A DNA stretch of 64,000 nt from a virus (IMGVR_UViG_3300025575_000011:1-64000); one strand, 5' to 3'; shown: positions 8,913-15,969, numbered from the stretch's first letter. Notes: generated by a model from the sequence alone, not told the origin. Numbers and translations: made by a program.

Positions 8913-9100
8913 AAGAAATAGATATGTATGTTTACTATCCTTACATAAATAAAATGGTTGAAAAATATGAAGAAGAATTAATTGAGGGTGAAAAACTACA
9001 ACAATATCTCAACACTTTAGAGCTTTGGGAGAATAGATATAAGAAAATATCATTGACCAAAAAGAATGAACTGAGGTATGCATTACAAATATTGTATTAG
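8909..9100 (+). CDS. small hypothetical protein
   Basis: ATGA translational coupling at 8909-8912. Confidence 0.5.
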   Translation: MKEIDMYVYYPYINKMVEKYEEELIEGEKLQQYLNTLELWENRYKKISLTKKNELRYALQILY

Positions 9101-9112
9101 AAAGGAGAAATA

Positions 9113-9331
9113 ATGAAAGTAAAATGTAATTGTTGCAAGTCAATTGTAGCAATTAAGGATTTGATTTTCATAAGAGAAGAGGAATATGAAGTCCCTGTTG
9201 CAATCTATCAATGTCCTGTTTGTAAGGGAGAATTAAACGATTTACAGTCAGATATTATTGATGAATGTGAAGTTCTAGGTGGAAGAAAAGATTGTAATAA
9301 TTGTACGTGTAATAGTTGTTCGGATAGATAG
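9113..9331 (+). CDS. Cys-rich Zn-binding small protein
   Basis: CNCC...CPVC...CNNCTCNSC. Confidence 0.6.
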   Translation: MKVKCNCCKSIVAIKDLIFIREEEYEVPVAIYQCPVCKGELNDLQSDIIDECEVLGGRKDCNNCTCNSCSDR

Positions 9332-9455
9332 GGAAATGAAAGAGTAATTTCATGGGGTTTGAGTATTTGAAAATCGTAGTAAATGGAAGCATGAGCGAGT
9401 ATTAGAGAGATGTATTTTATAGTACAAACAAATATATAATAAACAGGAGGAATAT

Positions 9456-10292
9456 ATGTTAGAATTAAATAACTTTTACATTGATAACTCAGTAAACTTT
9501 ATGGAAGAAAACATTCCAGATAATTACATAGACTTAACAATTACTTCCCCTCCATATGATGATTTGAGAAATTACAATGGATTCTCATTTGACTATAAAA
9601 CAATGCTAAACGAATTATATAGAATTACTAAAGATGGTGGCACTGTAATTTGGGTAGTAGGAGATAAAACAACAAAAGGTAGTGAAACTGGTACATCATT
9701 TAAACAAGCATTATATGCAAAGGAAATAGGGTTTAACTTACACGATACCATGATTTATGGTAAAAATAATCCATTTGGTACTTGTGGTAATCCTCCTTTA
9801 AGATATTCACAAGGATTTGAATACATATTTGTTTTTACCAAGGGTAGAATAAAAACATTTAATCCTATAAAAATACCTTGCAAATATGCAGGAGATACTA
9901 TTCTATTAACCACAAGGAAAGATAGACAATCAGATGGATTACCATTTGACCATTTAAGAAGTAAAATAGACACAGTAAAAGATACAAAGATTAAATCTAA
10001 CATATGGATGTACGATACAGGTAATAATAAATCAACAAAAGATAATCTTGCGTTTAATCATCCTGCAACATTCCCAGAACAATTAGCATTAGATATGTTG
10101 CTTAGTTATTCAAATGAAGAAGATGTTGTATTAGATCCAATGTGTGGAAGTGGTACTGTTTGTAAACAATCTTATCTAAATAAGAGAGAATTTATAGGAA
10201 TTGACATGAGTGATGAGTACATAAATAATATTTGTAAACCACGATTGAATACATATGGTTGGAAAAGTGAAGATAAAATAACAATATTATAA
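9456..10292 (+). CDS. orphan DNA methyltransferase, beta class (N4-C likely)
   Basis: Catalytic TSPPY near the N-terminus; HPATFP and DPMCGSGT SAM motif near the C-terminus. Confidence 0.9.
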   Translation: MLELNNFYIDNSVNFMEENIPDNYIDLTITSPPYDDLRNYNGFSFDYKTMLNELYRITKDGGTVIWVVGDKTTKGSETGTSFKQALYAKEIGFNLHDTMIYGKNNPFGTCGNPPLRYSQGFEYIFVFTKGRIKTFNPIKIPCKYAGDTILLTTRKDRQSDGLPFDHLRSKIDTVKDTKIKSNIWMYDTGNNKSTKDNLAFNHPATFPEQLALDMLLSYSNEEDVVLDPMCGSGTVCKQSYLNKREFIGIDMSDEYINNICKPRLNTYGWKSEDKITIL

Positions 10293-10319
10293 AATATAAT
10301 TTTGAGAAGGAGTTTAACT

Positions 10320-10547
10320 ATGACTAAAAATTCAATGAAGTCAAAAGTTATTAGTCTTACTGGGAAATTACTACAGGCTAAAAGAAGTGGAAATGTAATG
10401 AAGGAACAAACAGCATATCAAAATCTGTATGAATTTTGTATTGAAAATAATATTGACTTTGACAATGCTTATATTGGTGCTGTGGAATGGATTAAACAAA
10501 ATAAGCCTATAGCAAGTGCTATGAATGGGATATTAGTTAATACATAG
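10320..10547 (+). CDS. hypothetical protein
   Basis: RBS gaagga; start moved to ATG 10320. Confidence 0.55.
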   Translation: MTKNSMKSKVISLTGKLLQAKRSGNVMKEQTAYQNLYEFCIENNIDFDNAYIGAVEWIKQNKPIASAMNGILVNT

Positions 10548-10661
10548 AAGTATAGAAGTAGCACCTTCTTCATGCTTCTATATACTCACTTATGCTACGT
10601 TTTCAAACACTAAAATACCATAAAATCATTCTTTCAATCTATAAGGAAAGGGGATAAAACA

Positions 10662-10847
10662 ATGAAAAACTTTAATATAATTCACTATAAAGAATGTCCA
10701 CAATGTAATTTCCATATTGATTCACTTTCAAAATATGCTTATGACAATAATTTATGTCCTAAATGCGGATATACAACAGGTTATGGTTCGTCAACACCAG
10801 TAATTCCTTCCGACATAAATAATCATACTGGATTATTAACTAAATAA
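10662..10847 (+). CDS. Zn-ribbon small protein
   Basis: CPQC...CPKCG. Confidence 0.6.
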   Translation: MKNFNIIHYKECPQCNFHIDSLSKYAYDNNLCPKCGYTTGYGSSTPVIPSDINNHTGLLTK

Positions 10848-10861
10848 GGAGACAAAATAAA

Positions 10862-11155
10862 ATGGAATACTGCGAATATATCCATGCCGATTGTGAATAT
10901 CTAGAAATCTGCAAAGAGAGAATTGAAGGAATTTGCATTAAGGATATCTTGGGAGAAGAATTAATCCTTAAACCTGAGTATTCGCCAAATGCTATCAAAG
11001 AGAGAATCCTATACTTTGCTAATAAAGATAAAATGAATAAAGAATTGGAGGTGAAAAGTATGTCTAAAGTTGTAGATTGTGGAGTAGGTTGTGATTTTAA
11101 TTGTGAAGGTAATTGCCCATTCAATACTAAAAATGAATCAGTAGTTGCTGAGTAA
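10862..11155 (+). CDS. Cys-rich hypothetical protein
   Basis: RBS aggag; an internal in-frame SD plus ATG at 11060. Confidence 0.55.
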   Translation: MEYCEYIHADCEYLEICKERIEGICIKDILGEELILKPEYSPNAIKERILYFANKDKMNKELEVKSMSKVVDCGVGCDFNCEGNCPFNTKNESVVAE

Positions 11156-11190
11156 ATATAATAAATAATAAATGAAAGAAGGATAAATAT

Positions 11191-12345
11191 ATGAATACTT
11201 TAAGTAATTTAATGCAAGAGGGAATCGAGAAAAATATTAAGGATACAACAGATACATATAAAAGTCTTACTAAATCATTAGGAAATCTTAATAATTGGAT
11301 GCAAAATCCATTAGACATCTTCAATAATTACTTTGATTTTACTCATCAAGAGCGAAAACCTTTAGAATGGTCAACAGATCATGAAGTAATCATTAAAAGT
11401 CAAGCAATGAATTTATTACATTTTCCAAATACAACTCGTGAAGTAACTGCAAAATATCCTATTCTAGTATCTCCTCCAAACGCAGGACATGACAGTAAAC
11501 TTGCTGATTTTAGTCCCACACAAAGTTTAGTAAGGACATTACATGCACAAGGTTTTGATGTTTATGTCGATGAATGGCTTAGTGCTACAGCAGAAGATTC
11601 TGAATTAGGAATTGATAGTTATGTTAATTTTACTCATAGATCAGTAGAAATGATTAAACAATTACATAATGTTGATAAAATCCATTTGTTAGGACAATGT
11701 CAAGGTGGATGGCAAGTATCAATGTATGCTTCATTGCATCCTGAAAATATATCGAGTTTAGTTGTGGCTGCTGCACCAATTAATTTTCATGCTGATTATG
11801 GAGTCATGAATATTCTTGTAGACAATATGAAGATGAAAGACTTTGAAAAACTTACTACAAAAGGTTATTTAGCAGGAGAAGATATGCTAAAGAGCTTTAA
11901 AATGCTTCAACCTAATGAACATCAGCACTTGAAATTCATTAAAGAATACATAATGGTATTAGAGAAAGATAAAAAAGCAATGGACAGAACAGAGCATTTT
12001 TCCCAATGGTATGATAATCCACAGAATTTGCCTAGACGATTCTATTTAGAAATTGTTAAAAATGTGTTTATGGATAATTGTATGAAAGAAAATACGTTTT
12101 CAATTGACGGTAGGGTAATTGATTTAAAGAATATCACATGTCCATTAGTATTAATTGGAGGAACAAAAGACCATATTACTCCTCCAGAACAGTGTTTTGG
12201 TATGTCAGAATTAGTTTCTACGCCACAAGATCAGATACATAAGTTTACAGTCAATGCAGGACATATTGGAGCTTTAATGGGTGGTAGTGTATTGAGGAAT
12301 GAGTATCCTAAGATTTGTGGTATTATGAAAAGTAGTGAAGTTTAA
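11191..12345 (+). CDS. PHA synthase (PhaC) / intracellular PHB depolymerase (PhaZ)-like alpha/beta hydrolase with Cys nucleophile
   Basis: Lipase-box variant LLGQCQGG, Asp in GGTKDHITPP, His in NAGHIG; PP.AGH.S..AD and DVY.D.W segments resemble PhaC/PhaZ-type proteins. Confidence 0.75.
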   Translation: MNTLSNLMQEGIEKNIKDTTDTYKSLTKSLGNLNNWMQNPLDIFNNYFDFTHQERKPLEWSTDHEVIIKSQAMNLLHFPNTTREVTAKYPILVSPPNAGHDSKLADFSPTQSLVRTLHAQGFDVYVDEWLSATAEDSELGIDSYVNFTHRSVEMIKQLHNVDKIHLLGQCQGGWQVSMYASLHPENISSLVVAAAPINFHADYGVMNILVDNMKMKDFEKLTTKGYLAGEDMLKSFKMLQPNEHQHLKFIKEYIMVLEKDKKAMDRTEHFSQWYDNPQNLPRRFYLEIVKNVFMDNCMKENTFSIDGRVIDLKNITCPLVLIGGTKDHITPPEQCFGMSELVSTPQDQIHKFTVNAGHIGALMGGSVLRNEYPKICGIMKSSEV

Positions 12346-12439
12346 TATAATAAAGTAGTTGTATTATTATACATAGTATTGCATAAAAATACAGTATATT
12401 TATGTATAATGTGCATAAAAAGTAGAGGAGAGATTATAT

Positions 12440-12658
12440 ATGGAATATGTAAGCATTACCGCTATTATTAAAGATGGAGGATATAGGAAACTACAAATTA
12501 CCCCAGAAATGCTCAGTGAACTAACAATAGCAATTCAAAAAAATGGGTCTGAAATTGTTCAATTACCGTTTAGTGATATAGTCATTGCTGGAATATTAAT
12601 AGTGGGAAAAGACATTGGAGAAAGAGTAATTTTTATCAGTGATGATAATGTTCAATAA
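12440..12658 (+). CDS. hypothetical protein
   Basis: 72-aa ORF, RBS gaggag. Confidence 0.55.
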   Translation: MEYVSITAIIKDGGYRKLQITPEMLSELTIAIQKNGSEIVQLPFSDIVIAGILIVGKDIGERVIFISDDNVQ

Positions 12659-12675
12659 CACATAAATAATATATG

Positions 12676-12704
12676 TTGACTTTAAACCTTGCAAAGTGTA
12701 TACT
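12676..12704 (+). promoter_or_regulatory. sigmaA-type promoter
   Basis: TTGACT-17 nt-TATACT upstream of the ligase. Confidence 0.7.
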
Positions 12705-12757
12705 TAGTATATCGAGTGAGGTTCAATTTTTAGAAGAAAGAAGGAGAGAAAATACAT

Positions 12758-14044
12758 ATGGAAAAAGTATTGTCAATCGTAGAACAAATCCAAGCAACAT
12801 CTGGAAGGAACGATAAGGAGTTTATTTTATCACAACATAAGGACAATGAGTTATTCAAGACTGTAATGCACTTCATCTATAATCCATTTATCCTTACAGG
12901 AATCAGTAAAAAGAAGATCAGTAAGAAATTAAAACTTCCAGCAGAACCTTCCACATTATCAATTATTGAGGTTATGGATTATCTTAAAACATATAATTCT
13001 GGTAGAGATGAGGATGTTGCTTTAGTACAACACTTTATTCAATCACAGCCCGAAGGATTAAGAGACTTCTATACTAAGATTGTCTCCAAGGATTTAAGCA
13101 TTGGCATGACAGAAGGCACGTTAAACAAGGTATATGGAGCAGGATTCATAAAAACATTCAGCGTCATGTTAGCTAAGAAATATGAAGATCATAAGAAAAA
13201 AATTAAAGGCGATTTTGTTTTAACGGAGAAAATGGATGGGAATCGCTGTGTAGTAATTAAAGATAATGGAGTTGTAAAGTCTTTTACTAGACAAGGTAAA
13301 CAGTATGATGGACTTGAAGAAATTGAATCAGACATTGCTAACTTGCTTGAAGACAATGTTATTTTTGATGGAGAATTAATTGCAGATATGCAAGGTAGCA
13401 CGATTGAAATTTATGCGGAGACAACCAGTAAGGCAAGAAGTAAAGGAAGTAATAAAACAGGATTGGTATATCACATTTTTGATATGTTACCATTAGGGCA
13501 ATTCCAAGATGGAAAATCTAGTGCAAATTGTATTACACGCAAAAAATACTTATCTAGTGTATTTGATAATAATACATTCTCGCACTGCGTAGAAGTAAAA
13601 CCTTTGTACATAGGAAATGATTTATCAGAAGTGGAAAAATGGATGGGTTGGGCTAAAGACAACGAACTCGAAGGAATAATGTTGAACTTAGACAAGCCGT
13701 ATATTTGTAAGAGAAGTGATTTCATTTTGAAAGTTAAAACCTTTAATGATGCAGATGTAAAATGCTTAGGCGTTTTAGAAGGAACTGGCAAAAATGTAGG
13801 TAAACTTGGTGCTATTACAATCCAATTCACTCATGAGAATAAGATATATGAATGTAATTGTGGTTCAGGATTCTCAGATGAGGAACGAGAAGCATACTGG
13901 AAGACACCAGAATTGATTGTAGGTAAGATTGTGACAGTAGGTTATTTTGAAGTCTCTAAGAATGCACAAGGAGATTATGGGTTGAGATTCCCAACTTGGA
14001 AAAGTATTATTAGACATGATAAAACAGAAATTAGTATGAATTAA
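12758..14044 (+). CDS. lig: ATP-dependent DNA ligase
   Basis: Adenylation motif TEKMDGNR, FDGEL, YHIFD, EGIML, ILKVK, C-terminal OB fold GSGFSD...LRFP. Confidence 0.93.
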   Translation: MEKVLSIVEQIQATSGRNDKEFILSQHKDNELFKTVMHFIYNPFILTGISKKKISKKLKLPAEPSTLSIIEVMDYLKTYNSGRDEDVALVQHFIQSQPEGLRDFYTKIVSKDLSIGMTEGTLNKVYGAGFIKTFSVMLAKKYEDHKKKIKGDFVLTEKMDGNRCVVIKDNGVVKSFTRQGKQYDGLEEIESDIANLLEDNVIFDGELIADMQGSTIEIYAETTSKARSKGSNKTGLVYHIFDMLPLGQFQDGKSSANCITRKKYLSSVFDNNTFSHCVEVKPLYIGNDLSEVEKWMGWAKDNELEGIMLNLDKPYICKRSDFILKVKTFNDADVKCLGVLEGTGKNVGKLGAITIQFTHENKIYECNCGSGFSDEEREAYWKTPELIVGKIVTVGYFEVSKNAQGDYGLRFPTWKSIIRHDKTEISMN

Positions 14045-15969
14045 AAGGACTATTTCGAAGGAAAGGAGTTAAATTATAATGACCAAATATGGTATAAAGT
14101 CATATTCTTTATCAATAGGTGGCGAAGAGTTTGGAGGGATAATGTACCCAATTGATACGATAATAAGAGCATTACAAAAGTATGAAAAAGAATATGATGG
14201 TCTTGTTGGCTCTTTAAGCGGTGAAACTACAGTTAAGAAAATTGTAGAAGAAATGATAAGGGATAAGTAAAACATGAAAGATATATTTCATTCCGAAAGG
14301 AGGAATACATAAAATGATTGAAACCATTATTTGTGGATTGTTAGCTGGAATACTTACATCAATAATTCAATTAAATATAGAATTTGCTAAGTACGTATTA
14401 TCTAAAAAATAATATATAAACTATATAAAGAGGAGGATATACCATTGAATATTAGTAAGAGAGATAAATCAATAATGAAAATGTTAGCAAAACTATCAAC
14501 GTACAAAATACCTTTCATAAGTAAAGTATGCAAAGATGTTTTATTAAAGAAAATTGAGGCAGAAGTAGATAAAGCAATACAGATAGAGTATGAAAATACT
14601 CGCTCATTCTTACAGGAATTTGCAGAAGCAAAAACATTCGATGAACCAAGTTTTATTAAGTTCAAATTGAAAAATACAATCAAATAGAAGAAATTTTGAG
14701 TAGGATAAAACATGTCATTTAATTGATTATAAGAAAGGATTATTTGTATGGAAAAGAAAAAGATTAAAGTAAGTGTAAGACATCAAGTCCTCGATGTTAA
14801 TAGAGATAGAGGTTGGATACTAAGGGAGTTAGATAAATATCCAAAATATGATCCTAAAAAAGATCCTGCTATTAAAAGACTAAATGAGAGATTTGCTGAG
14901 ATTGAACACGAATATAGTAATAGAGGGTGTTTGGGTACAGTCATCTTTGCTATTATGGTTGCAGTAGGTCTACCATCGTTATATTTGTTAATGAGTTGAG
15001 ATATATAGAAAGGAGAAACAATGTACGAGTTTTACAAGATTAAGTATCCTTATGATAACCTATTCAGTACGGGATTAAGAAATGGATATATACAAAAATC
15101 TAAGAAGGGTAAAACATTCAACTCCATTGGTGCATTAAAAAGCCATTTAACAATGACGAAAAAATTTGATAATGGCGCATTTGAGTTATTTTATAATGAG
15201 TGGTTGGTTATCAAGATCACAGAGAATGGAATTGAAGAATTAGGTAAGGTAAAAGATTTCACTAGCAAATGAACATTTCCTAGTATTAAGGAAGAAAGGA
15301 GAATATTATGCAATTAACCAAACAAGCTATTGAAAAGAAATATAATTGTGAATTAATAAAAAATAATGACTGTGATGGCAAAGGTTCGTATTGGCTTGCT
15401 TATCGAGACGATGAAGGTTATATAGCAGATGAATTTACTCTTAAAGAAATGGTTAATACCCTTGAAAAATTGGAGGATTAAAAACTAAAATTCATCGTAT
15501 GAAGGGGAAAATAATGCGTGAGTACATAGTGGATAGCTTAGAAAATACATGTGTTAATGAAAAGAATGATCCAATTAAGGAAAGTAAAATTACTGATTTT
15601 GGTCAGAGTGTTAGATTCAAATTGGAGAATAATTAATATAATAAGGAAATCGAATAAAATTATATAATGTATAATCCCTTTATAAATGTGAAATAATAAT
15701 ACTAATCCATAAAATATAAAGGAGGTAGTATTATTATGAAGCGACTTCTAAATGGGTATGTTGAAACTTTTTATGTTCTAGGGAATAGAGCAGGTAATGG
15801 GTTTATAAATCATAGTAGTAGCAAAATTCTTATTACAGACCCTATGAAGTCTAGAAAATTTGACAGCTTAAAGGAAGCATTAGATTTTGTAGAAGGAAAC
15901 AAAAATAGCTATGAACCATTATTCCCACATCAAATTAGGATTACAGTTGAGTTAATTTAGTTTTAGGGA

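Follow-up and report, generated by a model that had tools for sequence, protein, structure and literature searches.

Introduction

Polyhydroxyalkanoate (PHA) synthases (PhaC), intracellular PHA depolymerases (PhaZ) and the proteins of Pfam family DUF3141 belong to one superfamily, members of which have been described in several settings that bear on the gene treated here. DUF3141 members are reportedly granule-associated, according to the literature on the granule proteome of Ralstonia eutropha. PHA turnover matters physiologically in strict anaerobes, for example in syntrophic fatty-acid oxidisers, and the published PHA genes of Syntrophomonas wolfei are Swol_1241-1244. An architecture that combines Abhydrolase_1 with PHB_depo_C was listed as a rare, unexplained "PhaC type" in a preprint of 2019 (10.1101/693432). 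In mycobacteria, Rv1683/BCG1721 is a fused lipase and long-chain acyl-coenzyme A (acyl-CoA) synthetase found on lipid inclusions, and its hydrolase-dead S150A mutant is impaired in the breakdown of storage lipid (PMC10699116). In viruses, transcribed phaC genes of phages, classed as auxiliary, have been described from PHA-producing mixed cultures (PMC12013262). Here we describe a phage gene for a 384-residue protein of this superfamily, which lies in a stretch of 64,000 nucleotides (the window) that forms the first 64 kb of the IMG/VR record IMGVR_UViG_3300025575_000011 (84,150 bp; CheckV completeness estimate 51%). Its lineage, named famX here, combines a partial match to Pfam DUF3141 with a match to PHB_depo_C, and its homologues are 40-57% identical. 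What is new is that an uncommon carrier harbours a different lineage of this known superfamily, and the phage lineage keeps the gene under purifying selection inside its early/replication block.

Family Placement of the Protein

A sequence-only reading that preceded this analysis had seen a 384-residue open reading frame (ORF) with the motifs GQCQGG, KDHITP and AGHIG and, in them, a complete Cys-Asp-His triad. All three motifs are where that reading had seen them, and in a phmmer alignment with the catalytic domain of Cupriavidus necator PhaC (5hz2, E 6.6e-18) Cys170, Asp327 and His358 fall on C319, D480 and H508, the counterparts of the motifs being GFCVGG, EDHIVP and SGHIA. The GQCQGG box, D327 and the run G357-H358-I359-G360 are invariant in 28 family members. 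The product is a soluble cytoplasmic alpha/beta hydrolase with a Cys170-His358-Asp327 triad; its N-terminus, as read from the sequence, is hydrophilic and lacks a signal-like segment. An AlphaFold2 model (28 homologues) has a mean predicted local distance difference test score (pLDDT) of 92.8, a predicted template modelling score (pTM) of 0.90 and an N-terminal helical extension of 60 residues. The closest solved structures are all PHA synthases (9knl, 9knj, 5t6o, 5xav and 5hz2; E 1e-16 to 1e-19), gastric and lysosomal acid lipases rank after PhaC, and a search of the ESM Atlas returned the same superfamily only. The gene is far beyond chance because its 1155-nt ORF sits in DNA of 31% G+C (GC) content, the class III PhaC profile is matched at E 3.9e-51, the model is this confident, and the ratio of nonsynonymous to synonymous substitution rates (dN/dS) is 0.157.

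Curated profile hidden Markov models (HMMs) place the protein within the superfamily and at a distance from its named enzymes. The class III PhaC model (TIGR01836) is matched over positions 36-344 of 350 with 174.1 bits, below its cut-off of 365.3; the class I (TIGR01838; 125 bits, cut-off 623), class II (TIGR01839; 82 bits, cut-off 855) and PhaZ (TIGR01849; 77 bits, cut-off 300.75) models are likewise matched below their cut-offs, as is PhaC_N of Pfam (15.2 bits against 23.7). With 384 residues in total, the protein is too short for the N-terminal domain of about 200 residues of classes I and II. Above threshold are PHB_depo_C (PF06850; 54 bits against a gathering score of 27, positions 52-200 of 203) and DUF3141 (PF11339; 88.9 bits against 29.7), the latter matched only over 59-371 of 582 model positions; reference DUF3141 proteins are 735-768 residues long and the famX protein is half that length. 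All 37 invariant columns of the 28-member famX alignment are kept in the phage protein. In a library of 1.84 billion cluster representatives, 96 are matched at E 1e-30, and the core family is small, because only two of them exceed 270 bits.

Judged by its signature motifs, famX is a mosaic of PhaC on the one hand and of PhaZ and DUF3141 on the other. An L-INS-i alignment groups the P-x-x-A/S-G-H loop, the F-Y-L-E/Q helix and C-Q-x-G-W of famX with PhaZ and DUF3141, and its G-x-C-x-G-G box, the His after the catalytic Asp and a Trp equivalent to W425 with PhaC. The A-G-H loop is one residue longer than the I-N-R/K of PhaC. The signatures of two PhaZ references (A-V-C-Q-P, D-D-I-S and F-Y-D-E-Y) are absent, famX having G-Q-C-Q-G-G, D-H-I-T and F-x-x-W-Y.

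These likenesses bear directly on a rival explanation, that the phage protein is a working PHA synthase of a compact new type, which polymerises (R)-3-hydroxyacyl-CoA by itself or together with a partner from the host; the phage would then give its host, or the infected cell, a sink for carbon or reducing equivalents. Eight residues are reportedly universally conserved in PhaC, as Rehm's review is said to list them, and seven of these (S112, C170, G173, W273, D327, G357 and H358) are present; the eighth position is N198 in the phage protein and Asp in most famX members. The D-H dipeptide and the G-x-C-x-G-G box are also synthase-like, the best HMM match is class III PhaC over nearly its full length, the top folds are PhaC, and the predicted helical extension fits a synthase as well. 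We nevertheless hold a synthase to be unlikely, given a score under half the class III cut-off, where the true PhaC of famX-bearing bacteria reach 330-400 bits, and a position outside the PhaC clade.

That position comes from an unrooted tree of 49 sequences (IQ-TREE, LG+C20+F+G4 PMSF), in which the annotated references were taken from plasmid records. PhaC of classes I, III and IV forms one clade (support 100/99) with famX outside it, and core famX, including the phage copy, is a clade of its own (100/99), in which the phage copy stands beside P0006 and P0002-P0005. PhaZ and DUF3141 branch from among deeper, D-D-type famX-like proteins (support 89/92), on very long branches (2.7 changes per site for PhaZ), and the three groups join on very short ones (0.05-0.08). 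Because these branches are so short and the tree is unrooted, it is silent on whether famX is closer to PhaZ or to PhaC. The assignment to the PhaC/PhaZ/DUF3141 superfamily made in the sequence-only reading is borne out by profile scores and tree, and a phylogeny against the three groups, which it had proposed as a check, keeps the protein in the superfamily and at the same time sets it outside the PhaC clade, in a famX clade of its own. The G-x-C-x-G-G box, which that reading had taken as the mark of a PHA synthase, does not carry this weight here, since the curated PhaC (and PhaZ) cut-offs failed and the protein lies outside PhaC. To judge from sequence comparison, famX is almost certainly neither PhaC nor PhaZ and forms a separate lineage of the superfamily.

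Phage Setting and Selection

The source is a large tailed phage of a low-GC anaerobe. Its record encodes an integrase-like protein, a DnaB helicase, a 1040-residue DNA polymerase, the anaerobic ribonucleotide reductase NrdD, DNA methylases, a DNA ligase and homing endonucleases, and its last 20 kb include genes for an endolysin and tail proteins. The famX gene stands between a DNA methylase and the ligase, all on the plus strand, with phage genes on either side (Table 1), and a search of 9000-14500 gave no terminator-like site. The possibility that the product is an extracellular or virion-borne depolymerase was considered and rejected on the grounds of the hydrophilic N-terminus and of a gene that lies in the replication rather than the structural block.

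Table 1. Positions in the window of the famX gene, its motifs and its neighbours.
Feature	Position	Strand	Basis
N6/N4 DNA methyltransferase, early/replication block	9456..10292	+	PF01555, 8.9e-38
Cys-rich 97-residue ORF directly upstream of the famX gene	10862..11155	+	No Pfam match; kept in related phage
Shine-Dalgarno sequence AAGGA, 7 nt 5' of the ATG	11179..11183	+	Read from sequence
famX gene, 384-residue ORF, ATG start	11191..12345	+	ORF listing, HMMs, AlphaFold2 model, dN/dS
N-A-G-H-D loop, residues 97-101 (P-x-x-A/S-G-H motif)	11479..11493	+	L-INS-i alignment blocks
Nucleophile box GQCQGG, residues 168-173; Cys170 codon 11698-11700	11692..11709	+	Aligned with PhaC C319
W273 (PhaC W425) and F-Y-L-E helix	12007..12051	+	phmmer alignment, L-INS-i blocks
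KDHITP, residues 326-331; Asp327 codon 12169-12171	12166..12183	+	Aligned with D480-H481
AGHIG, residues 356-360; His358 codon 12262-12264	12256..12270	+	Aligned with H508
ATP-dependent DNA ligase	12758..14044	+	PF01068, PF14743

A related phage carries the same gene with 88.5% nucleotide and 91% protein identity and is represented by 16-19-kb contigs from several metagenomes and from a "Clostridiaceae" metagenome-assembled genome (MAG). In one of its contigs (L007) a single block of 88.5% identity spans 10865-12341, that is, the Cys-rich ORF and the famX gene. Altogether, the gene was seen in three sequence variants on about 12 contigs, which come from several metagenomes and in each case show a phage context. 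Comparison of the window copy with that of the related phage gives a dS of 0.44, and because dN/dS at this divergence is 0.157, the famX gene is functional cargo and not debris.

The opposite explanation, that bacterial DNA was misjoined to a phage contig or that the gene is a decaying passenger, might draw on the metagenomic origin of a record that is about half complete and on the one relative that sits in a bacterial MAG bin. It is very improbable: phage genes lie on both sides, the GC content of the gene (31.6%) is close to that of the phage (30.8%), the "MAG" contigs are fragments of the related phage, and the same arrangement with an intact reading frame recurs in several samples. Contamination and a pseudogene were rejected on the strength of this recurrence on about 12 contigs and of the dN/dS value. 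The gene can accordingly be called an auxiliary metabolic gene, being adapted and under selection in a genuine phage genome with phage genes at its flanks.

The sequence-only reading had described a lone copy among phage genes, with no PHA partner nearby, and as far as window and record were searched this stands. Of the 38 families matched by the 69 other ORFs of the window, 25 were listed, none of them PHA-related, and the 84-kb record, about half of the phage genome, has no match to PHA_synth_III_E (PF09712), phaR_Bmeg (TIGR02132) or AMP-binding and no phasin that we could find. The lack of PhaE and PhaR in the record counts against a synthase, for which the phage phaC genes reported as transcribed auxiliary genes (PMC12013262) offer a precedent.

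The same reading had called the gene an unusual phage cargo, and our searches agree. No genuine phage relative was found among 50,697 GenBank phage records, where three matches were bacterial-looking or unverified, and a motif scan of IMG/VR yielded one distant, class-I-like gene only. A megablast search of 20 kb against phages gave one match, of 250 bp, to a 636-kb uncultured phage. Two GenBank records were rejected as precedents and look like bacterial DNA filed as phage: in Acinetobacter phage MD-2021a (CAKLQH020000004.1; 232-305 kb) BetI, GlcC and GltS surround phbC, and Ralstonia phage YO188_1 (ON170320.1) is labelled UNVERIFIED_ORG and measures 34 kb for an inovirus.

Several further observations concern the immediate neighbourhood. 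The 97-residue ORF carries C-x-x-C and C-G-V-G-C-D-F-N-C-E-G-N-C-P patterns and has no similarity to DUF6483, DUF3786 or a 191-residue protein, with which it was compared to see whether the phage-proximal clade has a conserved upstream partner. The 94-nt spacer 3' of the famX gene (12346-12439) contains TGCATAAAAA twice, at about 12380 and 12413, the two copies flanking an AT-rich near-palindrome. At the place of the ATP-dependent ligase, contigs L007 and L151 of the related phage have an NAD-dependent, LigA-type ligase with a BRCT domain (PF01653); the swap is non-orthologous in otherwise syntenic DNA (window 12758-14044 against L007 3396-5414 and L151 6551-8533).

famX in Bacteria

With one genome scanned per species, 136 relatives came to light, most of them in Syntrophomonadaceae, Smithella and other Syntrophaceae, Syntrophobacteraceae and Thermincola. 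Far outside this range of bacterial syntrophs, famX-like genes of 38-39% identity also occur on MAG contigs of Nanoarchaeota/Woesearchaeota (DPANN; L072, L073, L075 and L077).

Neighbouring genes were clustered across 71 famX loci and the cluster representatives annotated. An acyl-CoA synthetase of roughly 590 residues, similar to FadD6/PRK08279, is at position -1 in 37 of the 71 loci, and position -2 is taken by a canonical PhaC paralogue in 14. A phasin-PhaR-MaoC-PhaC block lies upstream in 19 loci, complete in most, and in one more it is inverted and downstream. The resulting class-IV-like operon runs phasin, PhaR (Bacillus megaterium type), MaoC hydratase, PhaC, synthetase or another hydrolase, famX; in Thermincola the order is phasin, PhaC, famX, reductase and an acetoacetyl-CoA-synthetase-like gene. 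In Syntrophomonas zehnderi the entire phasin-PhaR-MaoC-PhaC-synthetase-famX locus occurs twice with identical scores (contigs C4 and C18), through either duplication or assembly redundancy. The true PhaC beside famX in the same genomes (Thermincola, Syntrophomonas) reaches 332-400 bits on TIGR01836, and no PhaZ (TIGR01849) over cut-off was found in the famX-bearing genomes searched, which included those of S. wolfei subsp. methylbutyratica, S. zehnderi and Thermosyntropha. Gene order identifies the S. wolfei member as Swol_1145; we found no literature on it or on an S. wolfei depolymerase.

This context favours a role for famX beside, rather than instead of, a complete PhaC+PhaR synthase. It also speaks against a synthase in the phage, as bacterial famX comes after complete PhaC+PhaR and a second synthase is not needed there. 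Because the operons already hold the PhaC+PhaR synthase and a dedicated synthetase, we infer that famX would be the mobilising partner, which is the most economical reading for the bacteria. Moreover, famX and its synthetase neighbour resemble the mycobacterial fusion protein family NF005898 in its N-terminal and C-terminal halves, respectively, an argument made on HMM half-matches only. In eight loci, a Ser-type alpha/beta hydrolase of 380 residues (for example L018 6707-7855, minus strand) with a weak match to extracellular PhaZ7 replaces the synthetase between PhaC and famX.

Elsewhere in the superfamily, a phosphate acetyltransferase gene comes next downstream of DUF3141 in Ensifer and Ralstonia, and in Legionella and Paracoccus the gene next downstream of a class-I-like hydrolase encodes an enoyl-CoA hydratase fused to a phosphate acetyltransferase. 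This recurrent pairing might link DUF3141 and class-I-like hydrolases to the formation of acyl phosphates.

Closest Cellular Relatives and Candidate Host

The typical famX context, with an acyl-CoA synthetase upstream and a pha operon, is found neither in the phage nor in its closest cellular relatives. The latter are orphan genes on ordinary bacterial contigs of 37-45% GC, and the phage copy is nested in their subclade. One metagenome (JGI 3300025600) contains both the related phage (L152) and a 46.5-kb bacterial contig (L155) that carries the closest cellular homologue, at 56% identity; an overlapping contig, L121, has about 45% GC. Because this is well above the 30% of the phage, the L155/L121 lineage is probably not the host, and it is possibly the donor of the phage gene.

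The sole lead to a host comes from a Clostridiaceae MAG of 3.8 Mb, into which at least two contigs of the related phage were binned; such an assignment is weak, and no transfer RNA in the window helps to assign a host. Its family in GTDB has a PhaC homologue in only three of 195 genomes and famX in none of the 195. A check of the host for PHA genes, as the sequence-only reading had advised, therefore came out negative for the candidate, which has no PhaC of its own; this goes part of the way towards the refuting condition that the same reading had set, a host lacking PHA metabolism, with the reservation that the assignment is weak. Having no PhaC, the MAG would leave a depolymerase without a substrate. 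The MAG does have a 3-hydroxybutyryl-CoA dehydrogenase of the Hbd type, and hence a pool of 3-hydroxybutyryl-CoA on which a synthase could draw. PhaC is not known to use the (S)-isomer that Hbd makes, and no MaoC-type (R)-hydratase over cut-off was found in the MAG, which tells against a synthase again. Should this MAG be the true host, a classical granule built by host PhaC is ruled out as the substrate, and with no such granule the synthase explanation, as well as one that invokes other acyl esters, stays alive.

In the latter, the phage-proximal clade would consist of (thio)ester hydrolases or acyltransferases with a substrate other than PHA, such as acyl-CoA, acyl-carrier or lipid esters, and the phage would redirect acyl-CoA or lipid metabolism of its host. 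Indeed, no pha genes adjoin the gene of the phage protein or those of its closest cellular relatives (P0002, P0123, P0005 and P0006), and few genomes of the candidate host family have a PhaC homologue; in addition, the fused relative Rv1683 acts on triacylglycerol and not on PHA, the acid lipases come next after PhaC among structure matches, and N198 replaces the Asp of most family members. We still find the proposal doubtful: the phage copy keeps every invariant column, the whole active-site set included, its sister branch (Thermincola P0008) and a large Syntrophomonadaceae branch are embedded in pha loci, and nucleophiles of the Cys type are characteristic of PHA enzymes, not of lipases.

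Possible Function

The reading that we put first, tentatively, is that the phage famX protein mobilises PHA or 3-hydroxyacyl esters. The broad classification of the protein is all but certain; what is uncertain is the direction in which the reaction runs, taken here as breakdown and not synthesis. Cys170 would form a 3-hydroxyacyl-S-Cys intermediate, as in all members of the superfamily. In bacteria, famX would act beside a complete class-IV-type synthase (PhaC+PhaR) and together with the FadD6-like acyl-CoA synthetase, as the missing intracellular PHA-mobilising enzyme of anaerobes; it may cleave ester bonds of the polymer or of oligomers by hydrolysis, or possibly thiolysis, and the neighbouring synthetase would re-activate the 3-hydroxyacids set free. 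The phage copy is presumed to be expressed with the early genes and without these partners, and might tap the polyester or 3-hydroxyacyl esters of the host for carbon and energy during infection.

A number of observations weigh against mobilisation. The G-x-C-x-G-G box, the D-H dipeptide and the Trp equivalent to W425 are synthase traits, and PhaZ has none of the three. Among HMMs the best single match is a synthase, and so are all top fold matches. The only PhaZ among the fold matches listed is that of Bacillus thuringiensis (8ynv/8ynw), in which an S102A entry points to a Ser nucleophile, and no Cys-type PhaZ is among them; because the listed PhaZ is only of the Ser type, the fold result cannot discriminate. 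The tree, with its short branches and no root, does not put famX nearer to PhaZ. The nearest cellular relatives, 48-57% identical, are orphan genes without pha or synthetase neighbours, and the candidate host MAG has no PhaC-family gene except that of the phage. Swol_1145 is absent from the published proteome tables of S. wolfei, no experimental work on any famX member was found in the literature, and the PhaZ7-like hydrolase of the eight loci described above could itself be the depolymerase. Mobilisation keeps its place as our first choice, at less than even confidence, because the binning behind the host assignment is weak.

A further possibility, which we regard as rather unlikely, is that famX constitutes a functional class new to the PhaC/PhaZ superfamily, with one member carried by a phage, either as the PHA mobiliser of anaerobes or as a self-sufficient minimal synthase. 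As a mobiliser it would serve the strict anaerobes Syntrophomonas, Thermincola, Smithella and Syntrophobacter, and the phage would drain the store of its host early in infection; as a synthase, the lone phage copy would confer polymer formation on a host without pha genes.

For the physiology of anaerobes, famX, found with an acyl-CoA synthetase gene at the end of pha operons, provides a concrete depolymerase candidate. The lone phage copy under selection suggests that viral takeover targets storage-polymer or 3-hydroxyacyl metabolism in anaerobic digesters and sediments. The enzyme is also compact (about 380 residues, with a confident model) and could interest bioplastic enzymology as a form intermediate between synthase and depolymerase.

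Comparison With Known Systems

Class III/IV PhaC (in our comparison that of Rhizobium pPR13E04 next to PhaE, class IV of Bacillus, and Swol_1241) is similar to famX in size, at about 350-385 residues, and shares with it the alpha/beta fold, G-x-C-x-G-G, the Cys-Asp-His triad with D-H, the conserved Trp and the best HMM and fold matches. It differs in having I-N-R/K where famX has the A-G-H loop and Y-R-Q-W where famX has FYLE. Furthermore, famX scores 174 against 365 bits, has PhaC_N below cut-off, lies outside the PhaC clade and shares operons with true PhaC, and the phage is without PhaE or PhaR.

Cys-type PhaZ, of the R. eutropha PhaZa1 type and represented here by plasmid-borne phaZ of Rhizobium and Azospirillum, has in common with famX the triad, the A/S-G-H loop, the FYL(Q/E) helix, a PHB_depo_C match above cut-off, a cytoplasmic location and genes in or near pha loci. 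Unlike famX, it has A-V-C-Q-P and D-D, no Trp at the position of W273, and a very long branch. The DUF3141 proteins of Azospirillum, Ensifer and Ralstonia (PF11339, about 740 residues) resemble famX in the C-Q-x-G-W-Q box, the A-G-H loop and a Pfam score above cut-off; famX, however, is half as long and matches the model in part, and DUF3141 has D-D and a very long branch.

Rv1683/BCG1721 (NF005898) is comparable in that its two halves are matched by famX and the conserved synthetase neighbour, and it is set apart by a Ser nucleophile (GXSXG) and a triacylglycerol substrate; the similarity to famX is weak (59 bits), and the phage is without a synthetase. Finally, the phage phaC genes of mixed cultures (PMC12013262) are, like the gene described here, PhaC-superfamily genes on metagenomic phage contigs that were read as auxiliary metabolic genes. 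Those genes were described as similar to host phaC and come from aerobic, PHA-accumulating communities, whereas the phage famX gene represents a different lineage, in the phage of a low-GC anaerobe and with no host counterpart found.

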